64,000 nucleotides of DNA, taken from positions 6,974 through 70,973 of the forward strand of contig NYZA01000143.1 of assembly GCA_002686955.1 (NCBI GenBank), given 5' to 3'. This DNA is from Gemmatimonadota bacterium (GTDB taxonomy: Bacteria > GCA-2686955). The translations under genes were made by a program, and so were the position numbers. The notes beneath the pieces were generated by a model. That model had not been told where the DNA came from, made no database searches, and saw only the letters and a program-made list of their open reading frames with translations. Shown here one piece after another: positions 11,412 through 58,745 of the stretch; within the stretch, counting starts at the first letter, position 1, and every line of letters begins with the position of its first letter.

Positions 11412-11434
11412 CGAGATCCAAACTTCGATCGGCG

Positions 11435-12307: not shown

Positions 12308-12314
12308 AGAGAGT

Positions 12315-14129
12315 CTAGTCCGCGTACCCGAGAGCTTTCAGCTCTTCGCGCAACCGAGGATTGGGATCGGGGGGACGGGGTGGGGTCCACCGAAGCTGCT
12401 CGAAGCGCGTCATGAGCGACCGATGGACCTTGGGATTGGACAGGAGCCCGCTCCTGACATCGGTGCGGTCATCGCCGGCGGGGGCGAGAACATTTGCTCC
12501 GGTCCGAGGATCTAACGTGAGGGTCCAACCGTCCGAACGGGTCGCGCAAATGGCGGGGTTCCGATCTCCGAGACGCGGCGAGCCGAGCGCCGGTGCTTCC
12601 GACCAGACGAGACGCGGGGAGCGATTGGAGGACCGATCCGCGAGCAGCGATCGCCCGTCGAGATCCACCATGCCGATCGCATCGCCCTCGACTCCGAAGA
12701 TATCGAGCAGAGTCGGCGCCAGATCGGCCAATGACACCAAGTTCCGGGCAACACCGGGCGCTTCCTCACCCCCCACGCGAACCGGAGCACCCACCGGCGG
12801 CTTGATGATCAGCGGTACCCGCAGCACCTCCCGGCGCAGCGACTTGCCGTGCTGAAAGACCCCATCTCTCCCAAACTGTTCGCCGTGGTCCGCCGCGATG
12901 ATGATCCAGCTTCGTTCCCACAGCCCCCGCGCCTCCAGCGCCCGCCAGAGGAGGCCGATCTGCGCGTCGAGCCAGGCCACTTCGCCCCGATACCGCGCCC
13001 GAAGAGCGTTCGCGATCTCCGCCGAAGGCTCGGAGCCCGCGGCGGCGAGCCCTTCCAGCTCCGCGAGCGTGCCCTCTAGCGCGAAGGGCGGTGCGTCGAA
13101 GAGAGAGCGGTACGGCTCGGGTGCGTCATAGGGCGCGTGCGGTGCGTCATCGTAGTAGTGGATCCAGAGCAGGAAGGGATCCTCGGCGGGCGCATCGAGA
13201 AGGAGCCAGCGGCGCGCGGCGAGCGTGGTCGGCACCGAGGAATCCGCCGTATCGAACCAGGCGCCGACAGTCTGCCACCGAGCGAGAAGCTGGCGCAGGG
13301 GCGGAAGATCCCAAACCGAGAGCTCGCGATGGAGTCGGCGCCGAAACCCCCGGTCGAGACCGATCGCGTCGGCGAGATCGAGGTCGGTGGCCGATACCAT
13401 CCGAAGATCCCGCGCGCTCAAGGCATCCCCCACCCGAACCAGGCCGGGATCGAGCGCATGGAGATTCGATCGCACTCCATGCCGGTGCACCCAGCGACCG
13501 GTCATCATCGACGTGAGACTTGGGATCGTAAAGGGCGCGGTGGCGACCGCGTTGTCGAAGCGGATCGATTGGCGAGCAAGCCGATCGATGCGCTCCGTGT
13601 GAGCGTCCGCGGCTCCGTACGCACCGAGAACATCGGCCCTCAGCGTGTCGATGGTGAGCAAGACGACGCGCGGGGCGTCGCCGCGGGCGGCTGGAGCCGG
13701 TAGCGGCCAAGGGACCGCGATCGCGCCGACCACCAGCGCACCCGCCCACGCCGCTCGACCGCCGCGCACCGCCCCCCAGTGAACGATCGGCACCAGCGCA
13801 AGTCCCACCGCGCTGATCGGCAACTCCAAGCCGGTATCTCGGCGGACCAACGCCGTCCACAGAATCAGGACCCCCACCCGCAAGACCGCCGACGCAATGA
13901 GGGAAGCCGGGGCTGGCGATTCTCGTCGTCCCCCCGAGGACAAATGCGTCATGCAGCCGAAGGCGGCACCCGCCAGTGCGTACGACGCGCCCGACGCAAC
14001 GATGAACTCCCAGCGCGCCACCGGCAAGAGGAGCCCCAGCCGAAGAAGCCGCACGCTCTCGACCAGGCCGAGCCCCCCCCAGATCGCGCCGTCCACCAGA
14101 GCGGCCCTGCGGCACCCGCGGATCGCCAC
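12315..14129 (-). CDS. Membrane-anchored AlkP/sulfatase-fold enzyme (N-terminal multi-TM domain plus periplasmic catalytic domain)
   Basis: ...VVLLTIDTLRADVLGAYG... metal-binding start of the sulfatase fold. The nucleophile region reads ATAPFTIPS (no C/S-x-P-x-R FGly motif). About 150 aa of TM helices at the N-terminus. The start codon is uncertain. Confidence 0.65.
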   Translation of the reverse strand: MAIRGCRRAALVDGAIWGGLGLVESVRLLRLGLLLPVARWEFIVASGASYALAGAAFGCMTHLSSGGRRESPAPASLIASAVLRVGVLILWTALVRRDTGLELPISAVGLALVPIVHWGAVRGGRAAWAGALVVGAIAVPWPLPAPAARGDAPRVVLLTIDTLRADVLGAYGAADAHTERIDRLARQSIRFDNAVATAPFTIPSLTSMMTGRWVHRHGVRSNLHALDPGLVRVGDALSARDLRMVSATDLDLADAIGLDRGFRRRLHRELSVWDLPPLRQLLARWQTVGAWFDTADSSVPTTLAARRWLLLDAPAEDPFLLWIHYYDDAPHAPYDAPEPYRSLFDAPPFALEGTLAELEGLAAAGSEPSAEIANALRARYRGEVAWLDAQIGLLWRALEARGLWERSWIIIAADHGEQFGRDGVFQHGKSLRREVLRVPLIIKPPVGAPVRVGGEEAPGVARNLVSLADLAPTLLDIFGVEGDAIGMVDLDGRSLLADRSSNRSPRLVWSEAPALGSPRLGDRNPAICATRSDGWTLTLDPRTGANVLAPAGDDRTDVRSGLLSNPKVHRSLMTRFEQLRWTPPRPPDPNPRLREELKALGYAD

Positions 14130-29838: not shown

Positions 29839-31530
29839 ATGCACGACCATATCTTGGGAATCTGTTGCTACGGCACCAACGATACCGGCGTGGCGCTCCT
29901 CGACCCCGAGGGCAAGCTGCTCTACATGAGCGAAGAGGAGCGCTTCAGCCGTATCAAGAAGGACACCTCTTTCCCGGCCGCCGCGATCGACGATGCACTG
30001 CGACACACCGGCATTTCGATCGACGCCGTCTCCGATGTCGGCTTCTATTCCGATCTTTCCGGCGTGCGGCTCTCCGCGGCGCTCCACACGCTGCGCAATC
30101 TTCCTCTCTCTCTCCTCTTTCTCGGCGGTGGCGTCGACTCCTACCGTCGTCACCAGGGTTTCGCCCGCGTGCTTCGCGAGTTGACCGGCTTCTCGGGGAA
30201 GGTGCACCACTTCCCTCACCACCTCTGCCACGCGGCCTCCGCGTACTACCTCTCTCCTTTCGACAGCGCCGCCGTCCTCACCCTCGACGGCACGGGGGAG
30301 TTCACCACCGGCACCACGTGGCTCGGCGAAGGGATCGAGCTCCACCCTTTCGGCCGAGGCCAGTTCCCGCATTCGATCGGTCGGGTTTACGAAGCATTCA
30401 CCCAATACCTCGGCTTCAAGCCGAACCGGGACGAGGGCAAGGTGATGGGCCTCGCGGGCCACGGCGACCCTGCCCGGTTCCGTTCGGCGCTCGCCGATCT
30501 CATCCACCTGGAGCCCGGCGGCCGCTACCGCGTCAATCTCCGTTACTTCCTCTACCACCTCGGTAGCGACACTCTTTTCAGCCGCCGCCTGGTAGAGCGC
30601 TTCGGCCCGCCCCGTGTGCCGGAATCGAGTCTCGACGAACACTACCGTGACATCGCCGCCGCTGTCCAGGAGCGCCTCGAAGACGTAGGGCTACACTTGA
30701 GCCGCGCCCTCGCCGCCAAGACCCCGACGCGCGACATCTGCCTCGCGGGTGGCGTGACGCTGAATACACAGATGAACGCCCGAATCGAAAGCGACGGCAT
30801 TTTCGATCGGGTCTTCGTCCCTCCCCCGGCGGGCGACCCGGGAACCGCGCTCGGCGCGGCGAAGCTGGTCTACCACCGCGCGCACCGCGGCCGGTCGCGC
30901 GAAACGATGACACACGCCTACTGGGGGCCCTGCTACGACGACCAGGAATGCGAGCGCGCGGCGAAAGAAGCGGGCACGAGCTGGCGCCGAGTCGATGATC
31001 CGGGGGACGCCGCCGCCGAAGCGATCGCACGCGGCGAAATCGTCTCTTGGTTCCAGGGACGGATGGAGATCGGCCCTCGCGCACTGGGCAACCGCTCGAT
31101 CCTCGGCGACGCACGCCGCTCCGAAATGGCCGACGTCATGAACCGCCGGGTCAAGAAGCGCGAATCGTTCCGTCCCTTCGCCCCTGCCGTGCTGGCCGAA
31201 CGTTGTGGCGACTATTTCGATCGCCCCGGCCCGCAGCCTTTCATGCTCAGCGTCTTCGGAGTGCGTGAAGAGCGCCGCTCCGAGGTCCCTTCGATCACCC
31301 ATGTCGACGGCAGCGCCCGGGTCCAGACCGTGCATCGCGAGTCGAACCCCGCCTTCTACAACCTGATCAAATGTTTCGACCGGCGCACTGGAGTGCCGGT
31401 AGTGCTCAATACATCGTTCAATGTGCGGGGCGAACCGATCGTCTGCACCCCGGCCGACGCGGCGGCGTGCTTTCAGAGCACCGATATCGACCGTCTCTAC
31501 ATGGGGCATATCGAGGTGATCGCTCGATGA
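29839..31530 (+). CDS. Carbamoyltransferase (NodU/CmcH family)
   Basis: N-terminal MHDHILGICCYGTNDTGVALLD (Carbam_trans_N) and a C-terminal Carbam_trans_C region (...VVLNTSFNVRGEPIVCTPADAA...). 563 aa. Confidence 0.85.
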   Translation: MHDHILGICCYGTNDTGVALLDPEGKLLYMSEEERFSRIKKDTSFPAAAIDDALRHTGISIDAVSDVGFYSDLSGVRLSAALHTLRNLPLSLLFLGGGVDSYRRHQGFARVLRELTGFSGKVHHFPHHLCHAASAYYLSPFDSAAVLTLDGTGEFTTGTTWLGEGIELHPFGRGQFPHSIGRVYEAFTQYLGFKPNRDEGKVMGLAGHGDPARFRSALADLIHLEPGGRYRVNLRYFLYHLGSDTLFSRRLVERFGPPRVPESSLDEHYRDIAAAVQERLEDVGLHLSRALAAKTPTRDICLAGGVTLNTQMNARIESDGIFDRVFVPPPAGDPGTALGAAKLVYHRAHRGRSRETMTHAYWGPCYDDQECERAAKEAGTSWRRVDDPGDAAAEAIARGEIVSWFQGRMEIGPRALGNRSILGDARRSEMADVMNRRVKKRESFRPFAPAVLAERCGDYFDRPGPQPFMLSVFGVREERRSEVPSITHVDGSARVQTVHRESNPAFYNLIKCFDRRTGVPVVLNTSFNVRGEPIVCTPADAAACFQSTDIDRLYMGHIEVIAR

Positions 31531-33284
31531 CGCGGGTCCTCTGCGCCCTCCTCTTCTTCGCGGCCGCCGGCTGCGGTCTCGGCCCGTCTCCCCTCCCCTC
31601 GATCGTCCTGATCTCTATCGACACCCTGCGTGCCGACCACCTCTCCTGCTACGGCTACGATCGCCCCACCCCCTCGATCGACTCTCTCGCCGCCCTCGGC
31701 GTGCTCTACGAAAACGCCCACGCCTCAGCCCCCTGGACCCTGCCCTCCCACGTGAGCCTCTTCACCGGCCTCTATCCCTCATCGCACGGAGTCGTCGACA
31801 CCGACCGCAGCCTCCCCCCCGCCATCGCCCAGCTCCCCGAGGCCCTGAAACGCCATGGCTACCGGACCGCTGGCTTCGGCGCCCATATCTACCTCGGCCG
31901 CAATTTCGGATTCGGCCGCGGCTTCGACCATTACGAGATCACCCCCTATCGCAACGATCCTCAAGAGATCTCGCGCGGCGACCGAATCGTTACAAAGGGC
32001 CTTCAGTGGCTCGACTCGCGCAAGGCCGATCCGCGCCCCTTCTTCCTTTTCCTACACATTTTCGATCCCCATTGGGCATACGCCGCACCGGAGCCGTGGA
32101 TCGGCAAGTACTCCTCCAATTACGTCGACCGGATGGACGGCTCCCTTCCCGCTCTCACCCATTTCATCGACCGCCCCATGCCGGGCGAGCTTCGACAGCA
32201 CGCGATCGACCTCTACGACGAAGAGGTCGCGTGGACCGACGCCCTGATCGGCCGCCTGATGCTCGAACTCAAAGCTCGAAGTATGTCGCCCATGGTCGTC
32301 CTCGTCGCCGACCATGGAGAGGAGTTCAAAGAGCACGGCTCGATGGGCCATGCAGTGACACTCTACAAGGAACAGACCCACGTTCCCCTGATCATCGTCG
32401 ATCCCGAGGGCGAGCAAGGGCAACGGGTCGCGGCGCCGGTTCGCACCATCGATCTCGTTCCCACTTTGGCCGAACGAGTGGGTATTCCAAGCGATGATCC
32501 GATCTGGCAAGCGCTCGAGGGAGCATCGCTGGATCGGGTCGATCCCGAACGCCCGGTCGTGATCGAGACCACGCGCTGGGGCTCTTCCAGGAGCGCGGTG
32601 TTGCTCGGTGATCAAAAGGCGATCTCCCCTTCGAGCTATCACTGGCTGGGCCACTGGCGCCGTGACGGAGAAGTCGTGCGCGAGCCGGTGGCGCATTTCG
32701 AGCGCGAGGCGGCTCTCTACGATCTCGCCGCCGATCCGAATGAGGCCACCCCCCTTCCCTGGGATCCGCGGGCTCCGGCGGCACTCGCACTGGAAGACTG
32801 GCAGGAGCGAACTTGGAGAGGAATCCGAGTCGAAATGCGGATCGAGAAGGGGCTCGAAGCGTTCATCTGCCTGCACGGCGACATCGTTTGGCGCGACCAG
32901 GCGAAGCTCGATGATGGAATCCGCACGCTCCCCGTGCCGATCGAGGGCTCGCTGATCACGCTCTCGAACCTACCTGCCGGGCGGAACCTCCGTCTCGATC
33001 TGCCTCTGGAACCGACTCAGCTCGATTCCTTGGAAATAGAAGTGTCGGGGGACGTCTTGTGGATTCGAGCCGGGAAGGAAGAGGAGCGGAGGCTCACCGC
33101 GGGCGGCCGCTGGACAATCGCGGCTAGTGATCCCGGTGATCATCACCGAGGATTGCCCGAAGGCGAAGCCGCCGTGTCGCGAATCTCCGTACGCACCCGT
33201 TCCTTCGAGGCGGTGAGAGCCGCGAGTGAGCTCTCCGAGCACGACAGGGAAGTGTTGCGCTCGCTCGGCTATGTGGATGGGTAG
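31527..33284 (+). CDS. Secreted lipoprotein of the AlkP/sulfatase fold (paralog of 12315..14129)
   Basis: Lipobox LFFAAAGCG. SIVLISIDTLRADHLSCYGYD, and nucleophile region HASAPWTLPSH (no C-x-P-x-R). Start ATG 31527 overlaps the carbamoyltransferase stop. Confidence 0.75.
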   Translation: MTRVLCALLFFAAAGCGLGPSPLPSIVLISIDTLRADHLSCYGYDRPTPSIDSLAALGVLYENAHASAPWTLPSHVSLFTGLYPSSHGVVDTDRSLPPAIAQLPEALKRHGYRTAGFGAHIYLGRNFGFGRGFDHYEITPYRNDPQEISRGDRIVTKGLQWLDSRKADPRPFFLFLHIFDPHWAYAAPEPWIGKYSSNYVDRMDGSLPALTHFIDRPMPGELRQHAIDLYDEEVAWTDALIGRLMLELKARSMSPMVVLVADHGEEFKEHGSMGHAVTLYKEQTHVPLIIVDPEGEQGQRVAAPVRTIDLVPTLAERVGIPSDDPIWQALEGASLDRVDPERPVVIETTRWGSSRSAVLLGDQKAISPSSYHWLGHWRRDGEVVREPVAHFEREAALYDLAADPNEATPLPWDPRAPAALALEDWQERTWRGIRVEMRIEKGLEAFICLHGDIVWRDQAKLDDGIRTLPVPIEGSLITLSNLPAGRNLRLDLPLEPTQLDSLEIEVSGDVLWIRAGKEEERRLTAGGRWTIAASDPGDHHRGLPEGEAAVSRISVRTRSFEAVRAASELSEHDREVLRSLGYVDG

Positions 33285-37211: not shown

Positions 37212-39182
37212 CTACCAGAGACTCAGAAACACGAGGGGCGGCGTCGCGGTGTTGTCCAACCGCTCGACGACGATCTGAAGACGCCGTATGCGAACGCCCG
37301 GTTCGAATCCGGATCGGAATCCAACGTTTCCACTCCTTTCGGTCAACACTGGACGCTCGAGGATCGGCGCCCCGTTCACGAGCCCCGTCAGTCGCCCGTG
37401 GTCGTTTCGAAGAGCTAAACGTGTCCACTGCCCCTCCCGCAAACGCCAAGAGCTCGAGCTGACTCCGACCGCCTCGCTACCGCGATAGTGGAGCAAGGCG
37501 CTCGAGAGGGAGTCGGTGCTGCTGACCCTGAAGGCGTGATGCGATTCGACGGTTCTTCGCGAGATGAGATCGATGCCGCCTCCCGGGCCCAAAGCTTGGA
37601 TCTCGGCGCTGATTTCGGTGATCGCGAGCTCATTCGATTCGGGCATCGCAAAAAGAAGTTCATCGAAGTGAGAAAGCGTGACGGTGGAATCCCGCCCGAG
37701 GCCGACGGGGTTCGGAGGGCGGGTGGAATCGGGGAATGCCGGCAACCAGATCCACTGGCTCGGATCGAGCACTTCGGAATGATACAGCGCGGGGTCACCG
37801 GGCAACTGGGCCCGAGAGGGTGCACCCGTTACAGTCAGCACCGTGTCGGTCATTGGAAGCGACGGCACGATTCCCGGTCGATTGTGGTACCGCCTCCCCC
37901 GCAAAGTATCGATCGCTGCGGAACCGCTTTCTGATCGCCGGCCAGGCAAGGTCACCGCGGTGCGGTCCCCCGACCGACCAAGCCGCGAGGCCACTACGAG
38001 CGTGTCGACCGTCACCATCGACGCTTCGGTTTCCTCGGACGGTCGCATCAAGACGACCAAGGTGTCGGCGGAGACCAGCTTCGTCTCCATCTCCTGGCCC
38101 AGCTCGATACGACGGGTCAAATACGGGTTGTTTTGGCCAAGCCCGCCCCCTTTTCCGCCTCTTGGCCGCAAGGGCAAATGCTGAGCCCAGATCACCGCTA
38201 CCGCCAAAAGGGGCAGGTGGAGAAGACCAACTGCGCTTTTTCGAACCGACCTGGACCGAGAGAGCCAGTGATAACGCAAACAGACGAAGCAGGCCAACCC
38301 AATGCCAGCCATACCCGCCATACCGTAACCTCCCGAAACAATCCCACCCCACATCGATCCGGCCACGATGGCGACCGCCCAGGCTGCCTGGTTGAGCGTC
38401 CTTCTGATCGCGACGACGAGACCGACTCCCGCCTCGGCCCAAACCGAAAGCGCAATCCAAAGCAGGACCACGACCGACAGATTCCTCGCCACTCGTAATA
38501 TGCGATCCAGGCGAAGGGGAGGCTTCGTCCCGGTCGGAAGAGAGGTTGCCTTGAGCTCTCTCATCCTCACTATTCCGGATAACGACTCCACGCCGATCTC
38601 ACCCCAGCCGTGACAGAGGTGAACCCAGCTTCCGTGGTCCACGCCGTTGACGTAGAGCCAATGCGTGCCCGCCCGACTCTTGATCCGAATGGAGTGCCAG
38701 GCTCCGGCCTCGAACCGGGGGATTGCCGGGACCGCCGATTGCCCGGATCGCCGGCGCGGCCCATAGACAGCTCCAGGAAGCGTTCCCAAGACCACCTCAT
38801 GACCGACGGCCGGACCAGACCCCAGAGAATCGAGTGTCCGCCGTGCGGCGCCCATTCCGACCGGCACCGCGTGAAAGCTGACGCCACACTCCCCTCCGGT
38901 GGGGAGCATCAGCTCGACCCGCAGATCGAGATCGCGAAGGAGCTCCCGCTCCAGCCGCAGCTCATCACCAGGAAAGACGACCCGCTCGCCGGCCAAACCC
39001 ACGGCGGCATCCGCCTCCACCCACCTCAGGTCGGGCGAGGGGGGACGGTAACCCGCCAGCTTCTCGTCTCCCACCGACGCCGCCATCAGCCCCGCGAGGA
39101 GCACGCAGAGCACGATCGCGAATTGGGCTATCCGTCTGAGCATGAAAAGGGCTGAGTCCTCGCCGATCGTCTTGCCTGACAC
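37212..39182 (-). CDS. Hypothetical polytopic membrane protein with beta-sandwich (lectin/LamG-like) regions
   Basis: 656 aa, first gene of the minus-strand operon with the SGNH-TPR and B12-rSAM genes. No confident family. The start may be the internal Met at 39143. Confidence 0.4.
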   Translation of the reverse strand: MSGKTIGEDSALFMLRRIAQFAIVLCVLLAGLMAASVGDEKLAGYRPPSPDLRWVEADAAVGLAGERVVFPGDELRLERELLRDLDLRVELMLPTGGECGVSFHAVPVGMGAARRTLDSLGSGPAVGHEVVLGTLPGAVYGPRRRSGQSAVPAIPRFEAGAWHSIRIKSRAGTHWLYVNGVDHGSWVHLCHGWGEIGVESLSGIVRMRELKATSLPTGTKPPLRLDRILRVARNLSVVVLLWIALSVWAEAGVGLVVAIRRTLNQAAWAVAIVAGSMWGGIVSGGYGMAGMAGIGLACFVCLRYHWLSRSRSVRKSAVGLLHLPLLAVAVIWAQHLPLRPRGGKGGGLGQNNPYLTRRIELGQEMETKLVSADTLVVLMRPSEETEASMVTVDTLVVASRLGRSGDRTAVTLPGRRSESGSAAIDTLRGRRYHNRPGIVPSLPMTDTVLTVTGAPSRAQLPGDPALYHSEVLDPSQWIWLPAFPDSTRPPNPVGLGRDSTVTLSHFDELLFAMPESNELAITEISAEIQALGPGGGIDLISRRTVESHHAFRVSSTDSLSSALLHYRGSEAVGVSSSSWRLREGQWTRLALRNDHGRLTGLVNGAPILERPVLTERSGNVGFRSGFEPGVRIRRLQIVVERLDNTATPPLVFLSLW

Positions 39183-41225: not shown

Positions 41226-42029
41226 ATGAAGCCACTGGAATCGGTGGGCGGAACCCGCCCCCCAACACATATTTGGAGCCCCGAGCGCCCGCGCGAAGCA
41301 CAACGCGAACCCGCAACCGGCGGCGCTGACGCGCAGCCCGAACTCCGCCCAGTTTCGTTCGAGACACAACTGACGGACCAACAGCTCAACCGTCGAACCG
41401 ATGCGAGAGAGCTTCGTAGCGGAGCCACCGATCTCGCTCGACTCAGCCGTGCGGCGGGAAAGATGTCGGGATCGCTTCGCGAGCTTCGCTCCTTGGCGTC
41501 GCGATCGAGCGAGATCAGCGTGAAGGACGAATGGAGTCGCGCCGAGATTCAAGGGCGTGTACAGGAGCTGATGCGCTATATGCGCAACGTCGCGGCCGAT
41601 TCGAGGCCGGAGCCGCCCAGGTTCTCGATCGAGACATCGAGGGGATCGATCGAGTTTCCACCCAGCGATCTCAGCCAGACCGCCCGGCAGATGGAGCGAG
41701 AGATCGATCTGAACAGCGTTTCCAGCGCCCGAACGAGCGTTGCGGCCGCGGGCCGGGCGCTTCAGGCGATACGCGAAATGCGCGCCGAGCTTTCCGAGTT
41801 CTCGAGGCAACAGCTCGCGCCGGCCCGGAACGCTGCCGATGTCGCGCGCGCCAATGCCGAGGCAGCCGAATCGACCCTGATGTGGGACGAATCCGCTCTC
41901 GAAGACGCGCACGCCGCGCAGGAAGCGGCGGACTCGGTGGCCGCCGTTCTCAAGGAGCAACTGGCCGAGACCCTCCGCGCGCACGAGACCCTCGACGGAG
42001 CCAGAATCGGCGCGCTCCTCACTGCCTGA
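41226..42029 (+). CDS. Hypothetical coiled-coil protein (Ala/Glu/Arg-rich), sigma-54-dependent candidate
   Basis: 267 aa from MKPLESVGG, with a good RBS. No family assigned. A flagellin-like call was considered and rejected. Confidence 0.4.
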   Translation: MKPLESVGGTRPPTHIWSPERPREAQREPATGGADAQPELRPVSFETQLTDQQLNRRTDARELRSGATDLARLSRAAGKMSGSLRELRSLASRSSEISVKDEWSRAEIQGRVQELMRYMRNVAADSRPEPPRFSIETSRGSIEFPPSDLSQTARQMEREIDLNSVSSARTSVAAAGRALQAIREMRAELSEFSRQQLAPARNAADVARANAEAAESTLMWDESALEDAHAAQEAADSVAAVLKEQLAETLRAHETLDGARIGALLTA

Positions 42030-42245
42030 TCAGTGCCACTCCCAGTCGATGAAGCCGGGCTGGACCTCTTCCATTGCGTTGACCATCAGCTCGACCAGTC
42101 CGCTGTAATAGATCCCCGCCTTCTCCCACGCATCGTAATAGTTGATGATATCTCGGAGCTGGCCCTTGCAGTTGCTGCATGGAGCGCATAGGTACTTCAG
42201 CGCGAGCGCTGCGCGAGCCGCACTCCGGAGCCGCCGGTCGTATGG

Positions 42246-43541
42246 CTACTTCTTGACGTCGCCGGTGGCGGCGCCGTGCATCTTGATCTCCACCTTCTCT
42301 TCCAGATTGTCGTAGTAGTTCTTCAAGATCGCGACGACCTCGGGCTTCGAGAACTCCTTCGGCACCGGCTTTCCTTCGCTCATCAGCTTGCGAAGCATCG
42401 TGCCCGACAGAAGCAGGCGAGATCCGCCCTGATACTGGCCCTCGTCGTCGATGACCGCCTTGCTATCGTGCGGGCAGGTCTTCATCGAAGCCATGGTGCC
42501 GCAGTCGTAGCAGTAGAAAGTCCAATCGAGGGGCAACGGCTGCAGATCGAGCGCGCCCTTCGGAATCTCATGGAAGATCTGCTGCGCGTCGAATGGGCCG
42601 TAGTAGTCGCCGACACCGGCGTGATCCCGGCCCACGATCAGGTGGCTGCAACCGTAGTTTTGCCGGAAGACCGCGTGGAGCAGGGCCTCACGCGGACCGG
42701 CGTAGCGCATCTCCATCGGATAACCACCCTGGATGATCCGCTCTTCACGGAAGTAGTTCTTCACGAGGGCGTCGATGGCGGAAACCCGGACATCCGCGGG
42801 GATGTCGCCTGGCTTCAGCTTGCCGACGAGCTGGTGGATGTAAACGCCATCGCAAATCTCATTGGCGATCCACGCGAGATAGGCGTGCGAATTGTGCATC
42901 GGATTGCGAAGCTGCAAGGCCGCGACCGTGCTCCAACCACGCTCCTCGAACATAGCCCGCGCCTCCGCCGGACGCTGGTAGATCTCCTTGAACATCTCGG
43001 GGTAGTAAGACTCGGAGAGCACCTTGACCGGGCCGGCGAGATTCACGTCGGCCTGCTCCATCACCTTCGCAACGCCGGGGTGCTCCGGGTCGGTAGTGGT
43101 GAAGATCTGTTTGCACTCGAAGGCCTTGTCGATCGTGTACTTCTCGGTGACCTTCATGGTCCCCATGATCGCGCCGGTTTCGGTGTCGACCAGCGCCACC
43201 TCCTCACCCAGTCCGATCGAGTCCGACAGACCTTGCTCGGCCGAGAGGGTGATCGGGATCGGCCAGAAAAGACCGTTCAGTGATGGCAGCGTGAATTCAG
43301 CGCAGCATCCTTTCCAGTCGTCCTTGTTCATGAATCCCGTCAACGGGGTGAACGCACCGATTCCCATCATGATGAGATCTGAGGTCTCCCTCGTCGTCAT
43401 CGGGACCTTCTTGAGGCCTTCGGTTTTCGCCAGCTCCGCATCCCTCTCCTGCCCGTCGAGCAGAAGCGGCTTGAGATCTTGCCCGCCATGGGGCTTGACC
43501 AACATGCTCATATTCTCTTTCTCCAGTGTGTTTCTACTCAC
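42246..43541 (-). CDS. sat: Sulfate adenylyltransferase (ATP sulfurylase, homo-oligomeric Sat type)
   Basis: ...[13 protein letters not shown]...[20 protein letters not shown]... are the canonical HxxH and GRD motifs. 431 aa. The start overlaps the upstream gene's stop (ATGA). Confidence 0.9.
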
Positions 43542-44884
43542 GAGGGCGCGAATGCCATGCGTTCATGAACCATGGCCAGCGTTCTGTAGAGCAAATGCGC
43601 GGATTTCGAGTAGGGAGTTGTCAGGAAAAGACAGAGCACGGCACCCAGGTGAACCACGTAGAGCGCGCAGTTGAGAGCGGTGGGCAGAAAGAACCGCCCG
43701 GCTTCAACGAACACACCCGAGAAGATCACCAGAGCTACGATGCTCAAGAAAAAACTGTCGAACGCCGTGGACGCACCAGATTCGGATTCCTTCGCGAGTC
43801 GATTGCGCACCAGCATGATACCATCGACGACCAGGAAGATCGCCGAGAGGTTGCCGAGTAGCTTGAAGGGGTGCTCCAGCGGCAAGGGCATGATCTCCCC
43901 CATGCCGTATATCTCTACGATCAGCAGGCCGGAGGTCACGGCGGCACCGATGAACCCCCACACCAGCGCCAGGTGACCTGTCTTTCGATTGTGGGCCGTT
44001 CCACAGTCGCCGAATCGCCGGTGCGTACCGATCTCAACCAAGACCGGCCAGAGACTCGCCAGAAACGAGCCCTGTCGCGATCCGGCGCCATCGAGCCCCG
44101 TCCAGAATCGCCACCCGCTCCGCCAGAGCGCCGCCGCCACAAGACCCGCGGTAGGGAAGAACACGGCATAGATCAAACTGTGCGGAACGAAGAGCTCGTA
44201 TGCGAAATCGCCATGCGGAAAAGGAGCCCGCGGCACGGCGAGGTGTCCGGTGATCGCCAGTGATGCCACGAAGAAAAGGATCGGTACGCTCAAGAGAACC
44301 GGCCAAGTCACGTTGGCCTTGGCCACGAGACGGCCCAGCACCGCCGGCACGGCCAATCTCTCGATTACCTTGGCTCTCACCGCCTGAAGCACATCCCCCG
44401 GGCGCGCGTTCTTGGGACACCTGGAAGTGCAGTCGTTGCATTGGTGACAAAGCCATATCGCCGGATCGGCTGCGAGCTCATCCATCAGTCCCCAACGAGC
44501 GAGCTGTACTTGCCGTCTGGGAGAGGCGATCTCCGCGGTCGTCAGATCGCAGACCGCCGTGCAGGTACCACACTGGCAACACTTCGTGATCGACTCGCCC
44601 CCTCCGGAGCGAATCGCCTTCCGATTCGCGGCGATCACTTCCGTCTCGGTCATCAAGCGAATGCGCGGGTTCCGTTCGATGCGCCCAACATTGATCTCCA
44701 TCCCACAAAGAGGTGGACAGAGTTTGGGGAAGTAGTTGTGATTCCGCAGGACGCGCCCCCCGATCGAGGGCTCGCGTTCGATGAGGACAACATCGTGGCC
44801 GGCGTCGGCGGCCTCCAGGGCCGTCGTTACTCCTGCGATCCCTGCTCCGATCGTAAGGATGGATCTCGATGCCGGTGTGGTCAC
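43538..44884 (-). CDS. Chimeric protein: HdrA/QmoA-like FAD-binding N-terminal fragment, 2x[4Fe-4S] ferredoxin, and QmoC/HdrE/NarI-like di-heme membrane domain
   Basis: N-terminal [36 protein letters not shown]...[13 protein letters not shown] is the HdrA/QmoA start. [12 protein letters not shown] and [12 protein letters not shown] are two ferredoxin motifs. The C-terminal ~230 aa are polytopic with His residues, NarI-like. Confidence 0.6.
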
Positions 44885-44889
44885 GGAGA

Positions 44890-46180
44890 ACTCCCTAGCT
44901 GAAGTTTCCCGGATCCGTCATGCAGCCATCTTGACCAGGATAGATAGAAACGAGTTTTTGTGCCGAATGCGTTCATCAGGGCAAAGTGTTCGTAAATCAG
45001 ATGGTTTCACGGCGTCGGTAAACTGTCTTCTGGCGTCAAAGAATGCGTAGAACCGTCGCGTTGTTGCGTTGTGCAGCCGTGCGGGAGTTTGCGCCGTTTG
45101 ATCGGTGTGGATCCAGGTTAGAGTGGCTGCCATCATGCAGAAGTGGAGGTGATTGGTCACCGCCACGGGGTTCCTGGTTTGGCTTCTTGCGCTGCCGATC
45201 TCCTGCTTCAGCTCCTTGAAGGCGGCCTCGATCTTCCAACGGGCAGCATAGTATTCGATGACTTGCTCCACCGTCAGGTTGAGGTCGGTGGTGAAGAGCG
45301 CAACCCAGGAGGTTTTGCGGTAGATCCATTCGGTGACGGCGAGGATAGTGCCTTGGTCGAAGGCGCGCGCAACGGCAATGAGCATCTCCCGTGCCTGTTC
45401 GATCTTGGTCTGAAACGTCACCGGGGTACGGCCAACTGTCATCTTCGCCGCGGCAATGGCCTTCTTGGAGTGATAGAAGCGGAAGGCAAGGGGCAGGCAT
45501 GCCCAGCCTCCCTTGATAGGCTTCAAGAGACCGATGGTCACGATGAGCTGCGCCCAGGCGTACCGCGTTTGGTTAGCTTTGGCAGCGTGGTCAAAGAACC
45601 ACTCGCAGCCGAAGATCTTCCTGCCGGTCTTGGGGTTGATGCTGTCATCAATGGCGACAAGCAACCGCTCATCAACGTATGGAGATGGGATCATCATCCA
45701 TACCGTGCTCCAGAGCTCCGCCCAGCGCAGCTTCGGTGGGGCCATAAACGTGTAGTAGCGGCGGAGGCTCACGCTCTCACCGAAGACCCAATGCAGAGCT
45801 CGAAGGAGATTTGAGGTACGTGCTGTCGAGAAGGGCATGATGATGGCCAGCATCGTCGAAACGAACCAGCGCGCCCTTTCACTACCGTTACGAGATGCTG
45901 GGAAAACCATACTCAAAGGACGAAGCAGATCGGCTACACTGGCCATGGAACGGGGCATCTCTTATGGTGTTGGCTGTCTTTTGTTCTCACGTAAGACATC
46001 ACCACATACGAGGTTCCCGTTCCACACCCCTGTCCGCTGTGACGGCGCCGACGCAGCGTGCCGATCGTAGCGCCGTGCCGCGCCACACACCAAACACGTG
46101 GCCGCTAAATAGGACGCAAAAGCCTGGCGACACTATATGCGTTCACAAGTGCCGCGATCTGCAACTGCGTCAATTATATT
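44890..46180 (-). mobile_element. IS4-superfamily insertion sequence (boundaries approximate)
   Basis: Contains the transposase 44918..45958. GC content is visibly lower than the flanks. It is inserted between the qmo-like gene start and a truncated cbiA. Terminal inverted repeats could not be located by eye. Confidence 0.4.
44918..45958 (-). CDS. DDE transposase, IS4/IS701-like
   Basis: C-terminal YAARWKIEAAFKELK is the Y-(2)-R-(3)-E-(6)-K signature of IS4-family transposases. 346 aa. Confidence 0.75.
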   Translation of the reverse strand: MPRSMASVADLLRPLSMVFPASRNGSERARWFVSTMLAIIMPFSTARTSNLLRALHWVFGESVSLRRYYTFMAPPKLRWAELWSTVWMMIPSPYVDERLLVAIDDSINPKTGRKIFGCEWFFDHAAKANQTRYAWAQLIVTIGLLKPIKGGWACLPLAFRFYHSKKAIAAAKMTVGRTPVTFQTKIEQAREMLIAVARAFDQGTILAVTEWIYRKTSWVALFTTDLNLTVEQVIEYYAARWKIEAAFKELKQEIGSARSQTRNPVAVTNHLHFCMMAATLTWIHTDQTAQTPARLHNATTRRFYAFFDARRQFTDAVKPSDLRTLCPDERIRHKNSFLSILVKMAA

Positions 46181-46800
46181 GTGTCGCTACACGGCCACGG
46201 AACCGTGAAACTTCAATCAAGAGGATCGCACTCGACGGCCCATCTCGCGAGATTGACCGACACATCGGTCGTGCTGGTCGTCGACGTATCGAAGTCGACA
46301 CGTACGGTTGCCGCCCAAGTGCTCGGCTGCCGAGAGCTGGAACCGGATTTGCAGCTCCGGGGCGTCATCCTCAATCGTGTCGGCACCAGTCGTCAGGAGA
46401 AGGTGATTCGAGAGGCGATCGCCATCGAGACCGGATTGCCAGTCCTCGGCGCGATTCCCCGACTCGAAAGAGAGCTGCTACCCAGCAGATATCTCGGTTT
46501 GGTCACCGCGTTCGAGCACCCGAGAATGACGGAGGTTCTCGGTAAACTGGCCACGCTTGCCGAAGAGCGGATCGATCTCTCGCAACTGCTCGAAGTCGCG
46601 CGCTCCGCGCCAACTCTTGCGCGGCTGGCGCCGCATCGTTCACACACCAGTGTTTCCAAGCCGGTCAACATCGGCGTCCTCAGAGATCGTGCGTTCTCCT
46701 TTTACTATCCGGAGAATCTCGAAGCGATCGCGGGGAGCGGCGCGGAGCTGATCGAGATCTCGCCGCTCCGGGACTCCACGCTGCCCGCGATCGATGCACT
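46181..46800 (+). pseudogene. cbiA: Cobyrinate a,c-diamide synthase (CbiA/CobB) internal fragment
   Basis: ...VVLVVDVSKSTRTVAAQVLGCRELEPDLQLRGVILNRVGTSRQEKVIREAI...LPVLGAIPR...NIGVLRDRAFSFYYPENLEAI...ISPLRD... is collinear with the CbiA middle region. The N-terminal P-loop part is absent (it begins at the IS edge), and the GATase part is lost after IDALYAI. Confidence 0.55.
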
Positions 46801-47115
46801 CTACGCTATCTGCACGCGCTCGGAACCCCGGAATGGGCTCCAAGCATGGCGCGAGCCGCCGCGGGAGGCTGGCGATGAACGACGAATCGGGCACCAACGC
46901 TCTCACCGCACCCGCGGTCGTGCTGGCCGTGGCGGAAGAGAATCCCACGCTTCTGGTTCCGGTGATCCCGGACCTTGTGCGCCTCAGCGCGGATGAGGAT
47001 CTGCGTCCGGATCTCGCGTCCGCCCTGTCCATCGTCGTCGATCGATGTCCGGGCGAGCTTGGTCGCTCTCTGACCGATGCAGTGAACACGGAACTCAGGA
47101 GGAGAGGTCGACGTC

Positions 47116-47700
47116 ATGCCTAGTGGACGAACCGGGAAGATCCCCGGCCTCGAGCAAGCCGTCCGGGCGCGACCGGAATCCGCGCAAGCTCATTTCAAGC
47201 TCGGAACCGCGTTCAAGGAACTGGGGCAGCTCACGAAAGCCGAGGAGGCCTTGCGCAAGGCGACGGAACTGGATCCATCGATGTACGAGGCGTGGGTGAA
47301 TCTGGGGGGCGTGCTCTTCGCACGGTGGGATTTCGCGGGTAGCGTCGAGGCCAACCGCAAGGCCGTCGAGTGCGATCCGGAATGCGTCCGGGGACACTAC
47401 AACTTGGGGCTCGGGCATCTGTACCTCAACCGCCCCGAGGAGATGGTCGAGAGCTTCAAGCGAGTTGTGGAGTTGGACAAGGAGAATGCCGGAGGTCACC
47501 ACCACCTGGCGATCGTCCAAAACGCGCTTGGCGATCTGAACCAAGCGATCATCAGTCTGGAAAGAGCCAAATCGCTCGGATTCTCTCCAGACCCTTCATT
47601 CATCAAAGAGATCGAGAAAGCTCTGTCCCGTCGCGAAAGCGAAGGCGGAGTCGTCTCGTTCGAAATAGACAACCACCCCAGAGAAGACAGCTCGGATTGA
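47116..47700 (+). CDS. TPR-repeat protein
   Basis: Four to five TPR-like repeats (AHFKLGTAFKELGQLTKAEEALRKATELDP..., YNLGLGHLYLNRPEEMVESFKRVVELD...). 194 aa. Confidence 0.55.
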   Translation: MPSGRTGKIPGLEQAVRARPESAQAHFKLGTAFKELGQLTKAEEALRKATELDPSMYEAWVNLGGVLFARWDFAGSVEANRKAVECDPECVRGHYNLGLGHLYLNRPEEMVESFKRVVELDKENAGGHHHLAIVQNALGDLNQAIISLERAKSLGFSPDPSFIKEIEKALSRRESEGGVVSFEIDNHPREDSSD

Positions 47701-47716
47701 GCAAAGGAGATCACTC

Positions 47717-48034
47717 GTGGCGGATTTTCAAGTTGGCGACTACACCATCGAGATCGACGAAGACGGTTTCATTCAGGAACCGGACCGTTGGGACGAGGCC
47801 GTGGCCCTGGCGCTGGCGGGAACGGAAGGAGTATCCGACCTCACGGACGACCACTGGAAGGTCGTCAATTTCCTGCGTGAGTACTACATCGAGTTCGGCG
47901 TGGCTCCGATGATTCGCAAACTCTGCAAGGCCACCGGCTTCAAGCTGAAGGAGATCTACGATCTCTTCCCCTCGGGCCCCGCCAAGGGTGCCTGCAAGGT
48001 CGCGGGTCTGCCCAAACCGACGGGCTGCGTCTAA
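47717..48034 (+). CDS. dsrC: DsrC (TusE/DsrC/DsvC family), intact C-terminal arm with both cysteines
   Basis: C-terminus ...EIYDLFPSGPAKGACKVAGLPKPTGCV matches the DsrC signature (CysB...PKPTGCV-end). 105 aa. DEDGF, HW(K)VV..LREYY and GxAPMxR blocks are present. Confidence 0.85.
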   Translation: MADFQVGDYTIEIDEDGFIQEPDRWDEAVALALAGTEGVSDLTDDHWKVVNFLREYYIEFGVAPMIRKLCKATGFKLKEIYDLFPSGPAKGACKVAGLPKPTGCV

Positions 48035-48328
48035 CGCGAGTGCGCGCGCCCCGGCAATCCGGTGTTGGTGGAGCGAGCCGCCCACCAAACGATTCCGGGC
48101 GTAGCGTCCCGCCGGCGGACGGAAACCGAGCTTTGATCGCCATGGCCGAGGAACATCCAACAGCTCACGCTGCCGTGGATCAAGCCAAATTCCGTCGACA
48201 ACCCACACGGCAGCGGCGGTGTTTGGGCGCGCCTGGCTCTTGAGGTGTTGCTTTTCCGATCGCTTTTTCGCAACACGAGTACGACGGTGCGCCCCGACGG
48301 CACGGTTCTTCACACTCCCTCCAAATAG

Positions 48329-48949
48329 TTGTGGGCGGCTTCCCTCGGCTTCCATTGGTGTTTCCTCGTAGTGGTGATCAGGCACATGGGCTTCTTCACC
48401 GACCCGGTTCCCCGAGTAGTCAGTTCTCTTTCCGGACTGGACGGATTCCTCGATATCGGCGTACCGGGTCTGCTCTTATCCGGTGCCTTCCTCTTCGCCG
48501 CCACGCTCTTTCTCCTCGGACGAAGGCTCTTCTCCGCGCAGCTTCGTTACATCTCCCTTCCGGCGGACTACTTCCCTCTCTTCTTGATCGTATCGATCGC
48601 CGCCACCGGTCTCGCCCTGCGGCATCTCGCAAAGACCGATATCGCTTCGGCGAAGGCGATGATCATGGGACTCGTCACATTCGCGCCGGCTTCGGGCGCG
48701 GAGCTCCACTGGCTCCTATATGCGCATCTGTTCCTCGTTTGCGTGCTCTTCGCCTATTTCCCATTCAGCAAGCTCATGCACGCCGGAGGAGTGTTCCTGA
48801 GCCCCACTCGGAACCTCGCCAACGACAACCGGGCGACGCGCCACATCAATCCATGGAATCCGCCATTCGAGGTCTACAGCTACGAGCAGTACGAAGACCA
48901 GTTCCGAGACAAGATGAAGGCGGCCGGAATCCCGGTAGAGAAGGAGTAG
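48329..48949 (+). CDS. dsrM: DsrM-like (NarI/HdrE family) di-heme membrane subunit, possibly N-terminally short
   Basis: 206 aa from a TTG start, 4-5 TM helices with conserved His, and a C-terminal cytoplasmic tail (NPWNPPFEVYSYEQYEDQFRDKMK). A stop lies immediately upstream, and no N-terminal extension is found in other frames. Confidence 0.55.
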   Translation: MWAASLGFHWCFLVVVIRHMGFFTDPVPRVVSSLSGLDGFLDIGVPGLLLSGAFLFAATLFLLGRRLFSAQLRYISLPADYFPLFLIVSIAATGLALRHLAKTDIASAKAMIMGLVTFAPASGAELHWLLYAHLFLVCVLFAYFPFSKLMHAGGVFLSPTRNLANDNRATRHINPWNPPFEVYSYEQYEDQFRDKMKAAGIPVEKE

Positions 48950-48952
48950 GCG

Positions 48953-49330
48953 ATGGCACACGAACCACAACCCGACGAGATGGTCTACTACGACCGAGAC
49001 GAGCTCTCGAACGTGCGAATCGCCCTTCCCGAAACGGGATGGATGGATACCCCGGTGGATCTGCGGCCCGGGAGCTTCATCTATCCCGCGAAGGGCAAGC
49101 ACCTCGAATACCTCGGGATGGCGAATCCCAGGCAATGGGCGCCGGCCGATCAAGACTGGAAGCTGCCCAGCAACTGGAAGGAGATCATCATAGACGGTAT
49201 CCGTGAGCGCCTGGACAAGTACCGTTCATTCCAAGTGTTCATGGATATCTGCGTTCGTTGCGGCGCCTGCTCCGACAAGTGTCACTTCTACATCGGAGGC
49301 GGCGATCCAAAGAACATGCCTATTCGGGAG
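48953..49330 (+). pseudogene. dsrK: dsrK N-terminal fragment (HdrD-like; about 125 aa incl. CVRCGACSDKCHFYIGGGDPKNMP)
   Basis: The first ~125 codons of ORF 48953..49534 match the DsrK N-terminal ferredoxin region. The frame then diverges, and the remaining ~400 aa (CCG domains) are absent. Confidence 0.6.
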
Positions 49331-49811
49331 TCGCAGCTACTGGACATTGCTTGGTGTCCTGGCTCTCATGGTTCTCGCCGGATTGTCCTGCTACCTCTAC
49401 CAGTTGAAGATCGGGCTGACGATTACCGGCTTGTGCCGGGACGTGCCCTGGGGCTTCTACATCTCGCAGTTCACCTTTCTCGTCGGCATCGCTGCGTCGG
49501 CGGTGGTGCTGATGTTGCCGTACTACCTACATGATTTCAAGGCGTTCGGGAAGATCGTGATCCTGGGCGAGTTTCTGGCGATCTCAGCGGTGATCATGTG
49601 CATGCTCTTCATATTCGTGGACATGGGACAGCCGACCCGTGTGCTCAATGTTGCTCTCTTCCCGACTCCGAATTCGCTCATGTTTTGGGACATGACGGTT
49701 CTCTTCGGCTATCTGGTGCTCAATGTCGTCATCTCCATGGTGACGTTTCGGGCTGAAATGCAGGGGGTTCAACCGCCAAGATGGATCCGCCCGAAGCTAC
49801 AGCCGGAATAG
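49331..49811 (+). pseudogene. dsrP: dsrP (NrfD/PsrC family) N-terminal fragment joined out of frame to dsrK; C-terminally truncated
   Basis: The alternate frame from about 49330 reads RSYWTLLGVLALMVLAGLSCYLYQLKIGLTITGLCRDVPWGFYISQFTFLVGIAASAVVLMLPYYL..., the N-terminal NrfD-family pattern. Only about 160 aa remain before the stop at 49811. dsrJ and dsrO are absent. Confidence 0.55.
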
Positions 49812-51107
49812 GTGGGGGGACCTGACGCCACGAAGTGCGTTGCGTGTATCTACCACAACAGGGCCATCGGGCGAGCGCAGCAATGTGTAGTCAAAAGCCT
49901 CGTGATCGGTAATCACTACGATACAATCCCTGGCGGCGATCTCTTGCCCATCGAAGGCGACGGATTCCAGTTCGACGCTTCCCGCGGCGTAGGTAGGAAT
50001 CATCGGATCGCTATAGGCAACGTTCGCCCCCCACTTGGTGAGCTGCTCTATCACATCGAGCGCGGGTGATTCTCGAGAATCGTCCACGTTCGGCTTGTAG
50101 GCAACCCCGGCGATCAAGACGCTCGCGCCGCGCACCGCCTGAGAACGGGAGTTCAGTGCCTCCGCCACTTTAGTAGCGACATAATGAGGCATGCTCGTGT
50201 TCACATGTCCCGCCAATTCGATGAATCGCGCTTCGAACCCATGCTGTCGAGCTTTCCAGGAAAGGTAGAAAGGATCGATAGGAATGCAATGACCACCGAG
50301 CCCCGGACCGGGATAGAAAGGGGTGAATCCGAATGGTTTTGTAGCCGCCGCCTCGATGACCTCCCAAACATCGATGCCCATCTCGTTGCACATTAGCGCC
50401 AATTCGTTTACCAATCCGATGTTGACACTTCGAAAAGTGTTTTCGTGTAGCTTCACCATCTCGGCGACTCTCGTCGATGAGACGGGCACGACATGGTCGA
50501 CCGTCTTGCGATAGAGGGACTGGGCTACGTTGGTGCATGTCGTCGAGTGACCACCAACCACCTTCGGGATGTTGCGTGTGTGAAAACGTGCATTACCGGG
50601 GTCCACACGTTCCGGAGAAAACGCCAGGAAGAAATCCTCAGCGACTCGCAAACCGGTGCTCTCGAGCCTTGGTAGGATCAGCTCGTCGGTCGTACCCGGA
50701 TAGGTCGTGCTCTCAAGGATCACGAGCTGACCGGTACGCAGGTGCTTCGCGATCTCCGTGACCGCAGCGGCGATGTACGAGACATCCGGGTCTTTCGTCT
50801 TACGGAGCGGTGTCGGCACACATATATTTATCGTATCGACGCTTGCGAGCAGCGAGAAGTCCGTGGTTGCGGTCAATCGACCCTCTTCGACCTGGGCGGC
50901 GAGGTCCTCGGATGACACATCGCCAACGTACGATTCTCCTCTGTTGATCCGCGCACACTTCGTCTCGTCCACATCGAAGCCGAGGACCGACATGCCCGAG
51001 CGAGCGAACTCGCATGAGAGCGGAAGTCCGACGTAACCCAAGCCGATCACTCCACAACGTACTGTTCCGGATTCGATCTTTTCGGTCAGTTCCTGTGCGC
51101 GGCTCAT
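49797..51107 (-). CDS. Nucleotide-sugar dehydrogenase (UDP-glucose/UDP-ManNAc 6-dehydrogenase family)
   Basis: N-terminal VIGLGYVGLPLSCEFA (NAD Rossmann), catalytic Cys region, and a UDPG_MGDP_dh C-terminus. 436 aa. Its start overlaps the upstream response-regulator stop. Confidence 0.85.
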   Translation of the reverse strand: MSRAQELTEKIESGTVRCGVIGLGYVGLPLSCEFARSGMSVLGFDVDETKCARINRGESYVGDVSSEDLAAQVEEGRLTATTDFSLLASVDTINICVPTPLRKTKDPDVSYIAAAVTEIAKHLRTGQLVILESTTYPGTTDELILPRLESTGLRVAEDFFLAFSPERVDPGNARFHTRNIPKVVGGHSTTCTNVAQSLYRKTVDHVVPVSSTRVAEMVKLHENTFRSVNIGLVNELALMCNEMGIDVWEVIEAAATKPFGFTPFYPGPGLGGHCIPIDPFYLSWKARQHGFEARFIELAGHVNTSMPHYVATKVAEALNSRSQAVRGASVLIAGVAYKPNVDDSRESPALDVIEQLTKWGANVAYSDPMIPTYAAGSVELESVAFDGQEIAARDCIVVITDHEAFDYTLLRSPDGPVVVDTRNALRGVRSPHLFRL

Positions 51108-58050: not shown

Positions 58051-58745
58051 GCTCGTGGCTTTGGATCGCGGCGATCTACCTTGGACTCCGTTACTTTGGG
58101 TTTTTCGGGCTCGGTGTGCTCCTGGCGGTGGTTCTGCTCGGGCAATGGACCGCCCGTCTCGTGGCGCTGGCGGCTCAGCGGTCCCGATTCCTGGCGCAAC
58201 GGAGAGCGGAGCTCGCCAATCCCGCGGACTATGGGGCTCGCCACCAGCTCGGAACGATCTATCTGCGGGCACGACGCTATGCGAAGGCCGCTCACTATCT
58301 CGAGGACGCCCTCGAGCTCATGCGAAAGAGCCCGCACGCGGAACCCGATCCGCAGTTGATCATGGACTGTGCGCGCGTTCGCTTCGCCCGGAGGGATTTC
58401 GCCGGCACGGCGATCTTGGCGGATGAGGTTGCACAGCGGCATGCGGCGCATCGAGTGGGTGACGCCAATCTCCTCGCCGGGCGCGCCCATGCCGCCACCG
58501 GCGCGTCCAACGAGGCTCTCGTCCATTTCGAGCAAGCGGCTGAACGAGCCCCTTCCTCGGCGGAAGCCGCCTTCCGGTGGGCGCGCGCACTTGCCGCGCG
58601 AGGAGAGGGAAGAAGGGCGTCGGCCGTGCTGCGTGGTTTTCAGACCGCTTCCGCCGGCGCGCCGGCATTCGTACGCCGCCGCGACCGCTGGTGGCGCCTC
58701 GCGATCGTCCTCTTTCCGGCGCTTCGTTTCTTGCCCCTCCGCTGA
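58047..58745 (+). CDS. Membrane-anchored helical-repeat (TPR-like) protein, hypothetical
   Basis: GTG start overlapping the NUDIX stop (GTGA). Two N-terminal TM helices (WLWIAAIYLGLRYFGFFGLGVLLAVVLLGQW), then Ala/Arg-rich helical repeats. Confidence 0.4.
   Translation: MSSWLWIAAIYLGLRYFGFFGLGVLLAVVLLGQWTARLVALAAQRSRFLAQRRAELANPADYGARHQLGTIYLRARRYAKAAHYLEDALELMRKSPHAEPDPQLIMDCARVRFARRDFAGTAILADEVAQRHAAHRVGDANLLAGRAHAATGASNEALVHFEQAAERAPSSAEAAFRWARALAARGEGRRASAVLRGFQTASAGAPAFVRRRDRWWRLAIVLFPALRFLPLR

Follow-up and report, generated by a model that had tools for sequence, protein, structure and literature searches.

Does an open reading frame (ORF) that starts as one subunit of a respiratory complex and ends as another encode a new kind of enzyme, or is it what remains of a lost operon? 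The question is raised by an ORF on the reverse strand of a 64,000-nucleotide stretch of DNA from a Gemmatimonadota bacterium (assembly GCA_002686955.1, contig NYZA01000143.1, positions 6,974 to 70,973; hereafter the window, in whose own numbering all positions are given), which begins like the flavoprotein QmoA and continues directly into the membrane protein QmoC. The nearest named genomes to the window are uncultured Gemmatimonadota metagenome-assembled genomes. A preliminary description of the sequence offered two explanations, a qmoA'-qmoC fusion left by deletion of most of qmoA and all of qmoB, or an undescribed compact Qmo-like module. Our comparisons bear out the first, because intact relatives align on either side of the junction, and speak against the second; we consider the fusion very probably a deletion scar that is functionally a relic.

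Within Qmo, QmoC serves as the dihaem-b/Fe-S anchor; it is reducible by quinol and feeds QmoAB, and these in turn interact with AprBA (PMC3333476). The composition of Qmo varies: some Gram-positive sulfate reducers have qmoAB but lack qmoC, and Caldivirga has no qmo (PMC3333476). Gene clusters for DsrAB, Sat, AprAB and QmoABC have been described in marine Gemmatimonadota (PMC11316326).

Make-up of the chimeric ORF

The chimeric ORF, qmoA'-'qmoC, occupies positions 43538–44884 on the minus strand and encodes 448 amino acids (aa) from a GTG start. Matches to NCBIfam, Pfam and solved structures agree with the preliminary description in placing a QmoA/HdrA-type start before a QmoC body. The qmoA-derived part (44629–44884, minus strand) corresponds to residues 1 to about 85 of a 418-residue QmoA, somewhat shorter than the approximately 100 residues first proposed, and includes the beta-alpha-beta unit, with its GxGxxG motif, that opens the FAD domain. 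It is recognized by DNA homology to the 5' end of qmoA in an intact relative (L001) and by its HdrA match: aa 3–85 align with positions 136–218 of the NCBIfam family HdrA2 (E = 1e-15), aa 7–116 match residues 144–260 of the HdrA chain 5odc_A, and Pfam places a Rossmann start at aa 9–49. Furthermore, aa 1–78 share 85% identity with the syntenic QmoA encoded by the relative, with a ratio of non-synonymous to synonymous substitution rates (dN/dS) of 0.09 over 78 codons, and aa 19–118 match QmoA with E = 9e-40. Judged from these alignments, the N-terminus is a QmoA/HdrA start, as had been claimed, and not a generic Rossmann fold. Over aa 1–85 the fusion is orthologous to the N-terminus of QmoA and shares its GTG start and GxGxxG motif. 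A complete QmoA/HdrA flavoprotein has a FAD domain with an inserted ferredoxin domain; only about 20% of QmoA is present here, since deletion has taken aa approximately 86–418, with the inserted ferredoxin domain and all that follows of the FAD/NAD fold. The start codon and the AGGGAG ribosome-binding site in front of it are both inherited from qmoA.

The qmoC-derived part (43538–44628, minus strand; aa approximately 86–448) is a near full-length QmoC (NF038018; Pires et al. 2003; Ramos et al. 2012, PMC3333476), composed of an HdrC-like domain for two [4Fe-4S] clusters and a multi-helix haem-b membrane domain of the HdrE/NarI-like kind. Residues 89–440 cover positions 7–360 of the 360-position qmoC equivalog NF038018 with 356 bits (E = 2.8e-106), above its curated cut-off of 300 bits. 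Pfam recognizes a 4Fe-4S dicluster domain at aa 99–160, and aa 89–175 match solved HdrC structures. Identity to QmoC over aa 86–448 is 72% with the intact relative, and that of the qmoC-derived part is 89% at the amino-acid level with a closer, sister lineage. All eight cluster cysteines (C102/105/108/112 and C146/149/152/156) are retained, as are the conserved histidines H235, H288, H304, H338, H412, H430 and H440, so that the ORF qualifies as a QmoC both by score and by its two CxxCxxCxxxC motifs and histidine set. The two ferredoxin cysteine motifs of the preliminary description are therefore present, with the difference that only one of the two ends in CP. Like qmoC in the relatives, the fusion lies directly upstream of sat; unlike QmoC, it has 85 QmoA residues in place of its first 14 or so, and its locus lacks qmoB, a complete qmoA and aprBA.

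Origin of the junction

Aligning the ORF to QmoA and QmoC separately, as had been suggested, located the junction between 44621 and 44649 on the minus strand (codons approximately 79–88), because homology to qmoA stops at 44649 and homology to qmoC of the sister lineage begins at 44628. In the intact relative, the gene order is LysR-aprB-aprA-x-CxxCxxCC-qmoA (418 aa)-qmoB (750 aa)-qmoC (395 aa)-sat. With blastn, positions 6471–6718 of L001 (a 12-nucleotide (nt) leader and the first 236 nt of qmoA) correspond to 44896–44649 of the window, and positions 10061–12453 (qmoC from codon 21, together with sat) correspond to 44602–42243. The sister lineage (L005–L007, 89% nucleotide identity) carries qmoC, sat and a Macro-domain gene behind the sequence for the QmoB C-terminus, and its alignment to the window spans 44628 to 42199 only. 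What is missing from the window relative to these genomes is about 3.3 kb, comprising qmoA codons from approximately 86 to 418, all of qmoB, and qmoC codons 1 to approximately 14, and the joint passes in frame from qmoA codon 85 or so to qmoC codon 15 or so. The junction nucleotides are GCCGCGAATCGG at 44632–44621; in the protein, the QmoA of the relative reads EVTSAERIDEGW here. Microhomology at the joint is unreadable, as the closest intact qmoA is only 78% identical at the nucleotide level and the junction is placed to within approximately 10–30 nt.

In QmoA the break lies where the first Rossmann segment ends, immediately ahead of the inserted ferredoxin domain (Fer4 at aa approximately 101–171 of the 418-residue relative), and in QmoC it lies immediately ahead of the HdrC-like ferredoxin domain. 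Because both breaks precede ferredoxin domains, HdrA alignments cross the junction smoothly. From these alignments it seems virtually certain that the fusion arose by deletion inside an ancestral qmoA-qmoB-qmoC operon.

Collapse of the sulfur island

The loss of qmoB is one of several in the same locus. In the intact relative, whose two parts (L040 and L001) form one contig of 82.8 kb, the sulfur island covers 35.5 kb from a UDP-glucose dehydrogenase gene to the end of a CCG-domain gene. It contains genes for a pyridine-nucleotide oxidoreductase and a CysG-like protein, dsrP-O-J-K-M, an RsbRD_N gene, dsrC, a TPR gene and a gene for a 155-aa protein; next are dsrN, dsrL, an 80-aa ORF, dsrB, dsrA, LysR, aprBA, two small genes, qmoABC and sat; and 3' of sat there follow a Macro-domain gene and a two-component/NarI/CCG cluster. 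The relative thus carries the cluster known from marine Gemmatimonadota, whereas the same interval in the window (42030–49796) is 7.8 kb long, of which 1.3 kb is an insertion sequence (IS), and has collapsed to stumps together with sat and dsrC. Mapping by blastn and tblastn of the intact relative against the window resolved seven deletions, totalling about 29 kb, one of which adjoins the IS.

The first deletion (D1) removed approximately 7.5 kb after sat and left a stump of 55 codons from the 3' end of the CCG-domain (DsrK/HdrD-like) gene (42030–42198, minus strand), which is joined directly to the 3' flank of sat. The second (D2) is the 3.3-kb loss that produced qmoA'-'qmoC. The third (D3), beside the IS, took about 10.2 kb containing the CxxCxxCC gene, aprA, aprB, LysR, dsrA, dsrB, the 80-aa ORF, dsrL and the 5' end of dsrN; residues 127–325 of 486 remain of this cobyrinic acid a,c-diamide synthase-like protein (46211–46807, plus strand, as are the genes that follow). 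About 0.6 kb is missing between the 3' region of dsrN and the gene for the 155-aa hypothetical protein (D4), of which aa 68–149 remain (46857–47102). The next two genes, for a TPR protein of 194 aa syntenic with that of the relative (47116–47700) and for DsrC of 105 aa with both C-terminal cysteines (47717–48034), are intact. A loss of approximately 0.8 kb (D5) took the RsbRD_N gene and dsrM codons 1–67; the remaining dsrM (aa 68–330 of 330, 48158–48949) has an internal stop at 48326–48328. Finally, about 2.4 kb containing the 3' end of dsrK, dsrJ and dsrO (D6) and 4.2 kb containing the 3' end of dsrP, the CysG-like gene and the pyridine-nucleotide oxidoreductase gene (D7) have been lost, so that dsrK is reduced to aa 1–130 of 542 (48953–49342) and dsrP to aa 3–163 of 389 (49311–49796). 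The joint between dsrK and dsrP, the other clearly mapped coding-to-coding joint, is out of frame. The collapsed island ends at an intact UDP-glucose/GDP-mannose dehydrogenase gene (49797–51107, minus strand), its syntenic flank.

Of the island's genes only three, sat, dsrC and the TPR gene, are still whole, and aprBA, dsrAB, dsrL, dsrJ, dsrO and qmoB are absent from the locus. With tblastn, QmoB, AprA, AprB and DsrA of the relative had no match in the 64-kb window, and QmoA matched only at its N-terminal end; thus QmoA, QmoB and AprBA, which a functional QmoABC requires, are not encoded together in the window. A copy of aprA elsewhere in the organism was sought among the available sequences, in which AprA is 84–87% conserved across many lineages, so that matches are unassignable; the most promising match (P0242/L043) comes from a lineage further removed. 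Genes outside the island, for example those for an RND permease, UvrA and UDP-glucose dehydrogenase, look intact, so that the decay is confined to the island. The chimeric ORF is itself truncated relative to its orthologues and lies among other disrupted genes, as is usual for a pseudogene. In the known reduced Qmo variants the flavoproteins are kept and QmoC is lost or replaced; here the situation is the reverse, and AprBA and DsrAB have been lost from the locus as well.

Function and constraint

On sequence grounds the fusion is probably non-functional. A single in-frame deletion of approximately 3.3 kb in qmoA-qmoB-qmoC produced the chimeric ORF, whose frame may have remained open by chance, since one in three deletions is in frame, and because the event was recent. 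If the ORF is translated, the membrane-embedded QmoC body would remain capable of binding two haems b and two [4Fe-4S] clusters, and would carry an 85-residue cytoplasmic fragment of QmoA that, at about one-fifth of the FAD domain, should be unable to form a flavin site. The canonical route of electrons between the menaquinone pool and APS (adenosine 5'-phosphosulfate) reductase, through QmoC, QmoB/QmoA and AprBA, would be impossible in such a product: it could not do the work of Qmo because the locus no longer encodes QmoB, AprBA or most of QmoA, and it would probably be a dead end for electron transfer.

The strongest competitor to this reading is a functional neo-fusion, serving as a stand-alone QmoC-type quinol:acceptor oxidoreductase, as the membrane anchor of another partner, or as a frame kept because the expression of sat requires translation or transcription to pass through it. 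Several of our observations favour it, and weigh against the fusion being a relic. The ORF is open and in frame, and keeps the native start and ribosome-binding site; every cofactor ligand, including all eight Fe-S cysteines and the conserved histidines, is retained; the arrangement is fixed across all assemblies of the population described below; and the fusion runs in the same direction as sat at a short distance from it, sat being clearly under strong constraint (dN/dS 0.016). For the qmoC part, dN/dS against the sister lineage is 0.146, which is not raised over the 0.13 between lineages with a separate qmoC, and branch counts with L001 as outgroup give 16 substitutions for the window and 12 for the sister lineage, with no significant difference. 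Dissimilarity from the family does not single out the fusion either. Its QmoC part departs from two columns that are invariant in 114 of 114 QmoCs (F121S and G354D) and from one that is invariant in 113 of 114 (F428S), but the QmoC of the sister lineage, which still has qmoB-qmoC, has G95R and C112R, the latter at an Fe-S ligand, at positions invariant in 114 of 114 and identical in three assemblies. As far as these alignments go, the number of departures is therefore not specific to the fusion. Lastly, the low confidence of the AlphaFold2 model at the N-terminus (pLDDT 31–64 for aa 1–78, against 85–97 in the membrane body) comes from a 52-sequence QmoC alignment that has no depth there, so the model at most hints that the N-terminus is an unfolded appendage.

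Against a working neo-fusion stand the radical changes just mentioned at invariant positions. The family-invariant residues have not been kept in the fusion, and in a leave-one-out control 104 of the 114 QmoCs had no private departure at otherwise invariant columns, and one had two. Both polymorphisms inside the ORF (2/2) are non-synonymous: Ser318, invariant in 114 of 114 QmoCs, is Phe (TTT) in six of seven assemblies, the window keeping the ancestral Ser (TCC, site 43931–43932), and F243I (site 44158) occurs in one assembly. The 85-residue fragment amounts to about 20% of the FAD domain, and no fold is predicted for it; the low dN/dS was for the most part established before the deletion happened; the six deletions nearby, together with a nonsense codon, indicate a locus that has been dismantled, not remodelled; and the architecture is found in no second lineage. 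Taking both sides together, we regard a functional neo-fusion as unlikely.

How constraint has changed is read more cautiously. Early signs of its relaxation appear to be visible in the fusion, and the departures in the sister lineage suggest that relaxation may predate the deletion; it may have begun in the clade, and the Qmo of the sister lineage may also be decaying. Taken together, dN/dS and the branch counts imply that most of the divergence arose under constraint, so that the deletion must be recent unless some constraint still operates. In weighing the fusion as a relic this counts against it, since a lapse of constraint is not demonstrable from these substitutions: dN/dS against the sister lineage does not separate a recent deletion from continuing constraint, and the data fit a very recent deletion or residual selection. 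The population is too clonal (4 SNPs, or single-nucleotide polymorphisms, per 20 kb) for a polymorphism test of selection to be of much use.

Homologues and independent assemblies

Among the 5.8 billion proteins searched, 776 homologues were identified, which are ordinary QmoCs of about 370 residues with the sole exception of P0001. This is the same fusion protein, from a Tara Oceans scaffold, and the only one of the 776 with a FAD start; no GxGxxG N-terminus was found in the longer QmoC homologues of this set. Four of these (P0055, P0066, P0089 and P0095) were considered as similar fusions and proved to be QmoCs with unrelated N-terminal extensions, and the long matches L025 and L011 are ordinary QmoCs.

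These results bear on the idea, the second of the two originally offered, that the ORF is an ancestral or independently evolved single-gene module, an alternative to QmoABC. A Rossmann start followed by a ferredoxin domain does mimic the order of domains in HdrA/QmoA, and HdrA alignments cross the junction. Yet both halves are colinear with the separate qmoA and qmoC of close relatives, in the same position and between the same flanks, the sister lineage (89% nucleotide identity) keeps qmoB-qmoC, and none of the other homologues shows the architecture. It occurs in one near-clonal population only, in a locus with six more deletions, and with invariant QmoC positions replaced. We consider such a module very improbable.

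The arrangement of IS, fusion and sat, together with the degraded dsr region, is common to at least five independent marine samples, at 99.66–99.99% identity to the window. The fusion is carried by assemblies ERZ17293991 (79.9 kb), ERR868353/ERZ908359 (36.8 kb) and ERZ27286803 (14.1 kb), by the Tara co-assemblies SAMEA2620043 and SAMEA2620113, and by Logan contigs. These come from several assemblers (NODE_, k127_, k119_, TARA scaffolds and Logan) and are few SNPs apart; by this measure, the carriers of the fusion are one near-clonal marine population. An assembly or binning artefact, in which a chimeric contig joins reads of qmoA and qmoC, has in its favour only the general risk attached to metagenome-derived sequence and is hardly credible, because independent assemblies from at least five samples and several assemblers carry the identical architecture, junction and flanks.

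Flanking insertion sequence and sat

The preliminary description placed an IS on the 5' side of the fusion, and it is there: an IS701-family element of 1316 bp (44900–46215, minus strand) with a transposase gene at 44918–45958 (NF049999, 228 bits; cut-off 170) and terminal inverted repeats of 19 nt at 44900–44918 and 46197–46215. One of its edges abuts the ribosome-binding site of qmoA, 15 nt before the GTG start, and the other abuts the middle of dsrN. No direct repeat indicating a target-site duplication was seen around it, as would be expected if the adjacent deletion came after the insertion. The window has one copy of the element, and a search for others recovered it in this context only. 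With the native upstream region replaced by the IS, which ends 15 nt before the start codon, any transcription of the fusion would need to enter from the side of the IS, probably by read-through of the co-directional transposase gene. Scans of 42000–46400 gave no sigma-70-like promoter sites, and terminator-like sites at chance level.

Downstream lies an intact sat (ATP sulfurylase, 421 aa; 42246–43511, minus strand), recognized by both Pfam and NCBIfam. The ATGA coupling between the fusion and sat that had been reported does not exist: the TGA stop of the fusion (43538–43540) overlaps a GTG, and the ATG of sat lies at 43511, 26 nt downstream of the stop and behind a GGAG. That sat starts at this ATG is almost certain, given that orthologues and the gene calls in five assemblies agree on 421 residues. 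Relative to the sister lineage, Sat shows 98.3% amino-acid identity.

Two sulfatase-family genes occur elsewhere in the window (12315–14129, minus strand; 31371–33284, plus strand). Use of organosulfates alongside the retained sat might bear on the remaining sulfur metabolism.

Other features of the window

A gene for a large secreted or membrane protein of 656 aa (37212–39182, minus strand) varies in length at 37947–38052, where L030, L036 and L037 have an extra tandem copy of about 100 nt. At 58640–63853 (minus strand) there is a UvrA-like ORF of 1737 aa, in which a complete UvrA occupies aa 747–1702, with a second UvrA-type ABC half in front of it; aa 7–970 match the long PRK00635 type.

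Significance

As a chimeric ORF left by operon decay, the fusion is a new instance of a known thing, and it reveals no new enzyme architecture. That it is instead expressed and kept, either as a working membrane redox module in which the QmoC body has a new partner or as a frame needed for sat, we regard as decidedly unlikely. If true, it would present a pelagic Gemmatimonadota just after the rapid loss of dissimilatory sulfate reduction through seven deletions, and a natural experiment in the salvage of a respiratory complex.

The deletion scar carries a warning for annotation. Its ORF scores as a bona fide QmoC and, together with sat and dsrC, would lead pipelines to credit the organism with dissimilatory sulfur metabolism, whereas in fact aprBA, dsrAB and qmoB are missing from the locus, as is most of dsrMKJOP. 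In evolutionary terms, the locus offers a clean and datable case of recent pathway loss, recorded in seven sharp deletions and one IS in a near-clonal population that is present in several ocean metagenomes, in contrast to a sister species that still holds qmoB-qmoC-sat.

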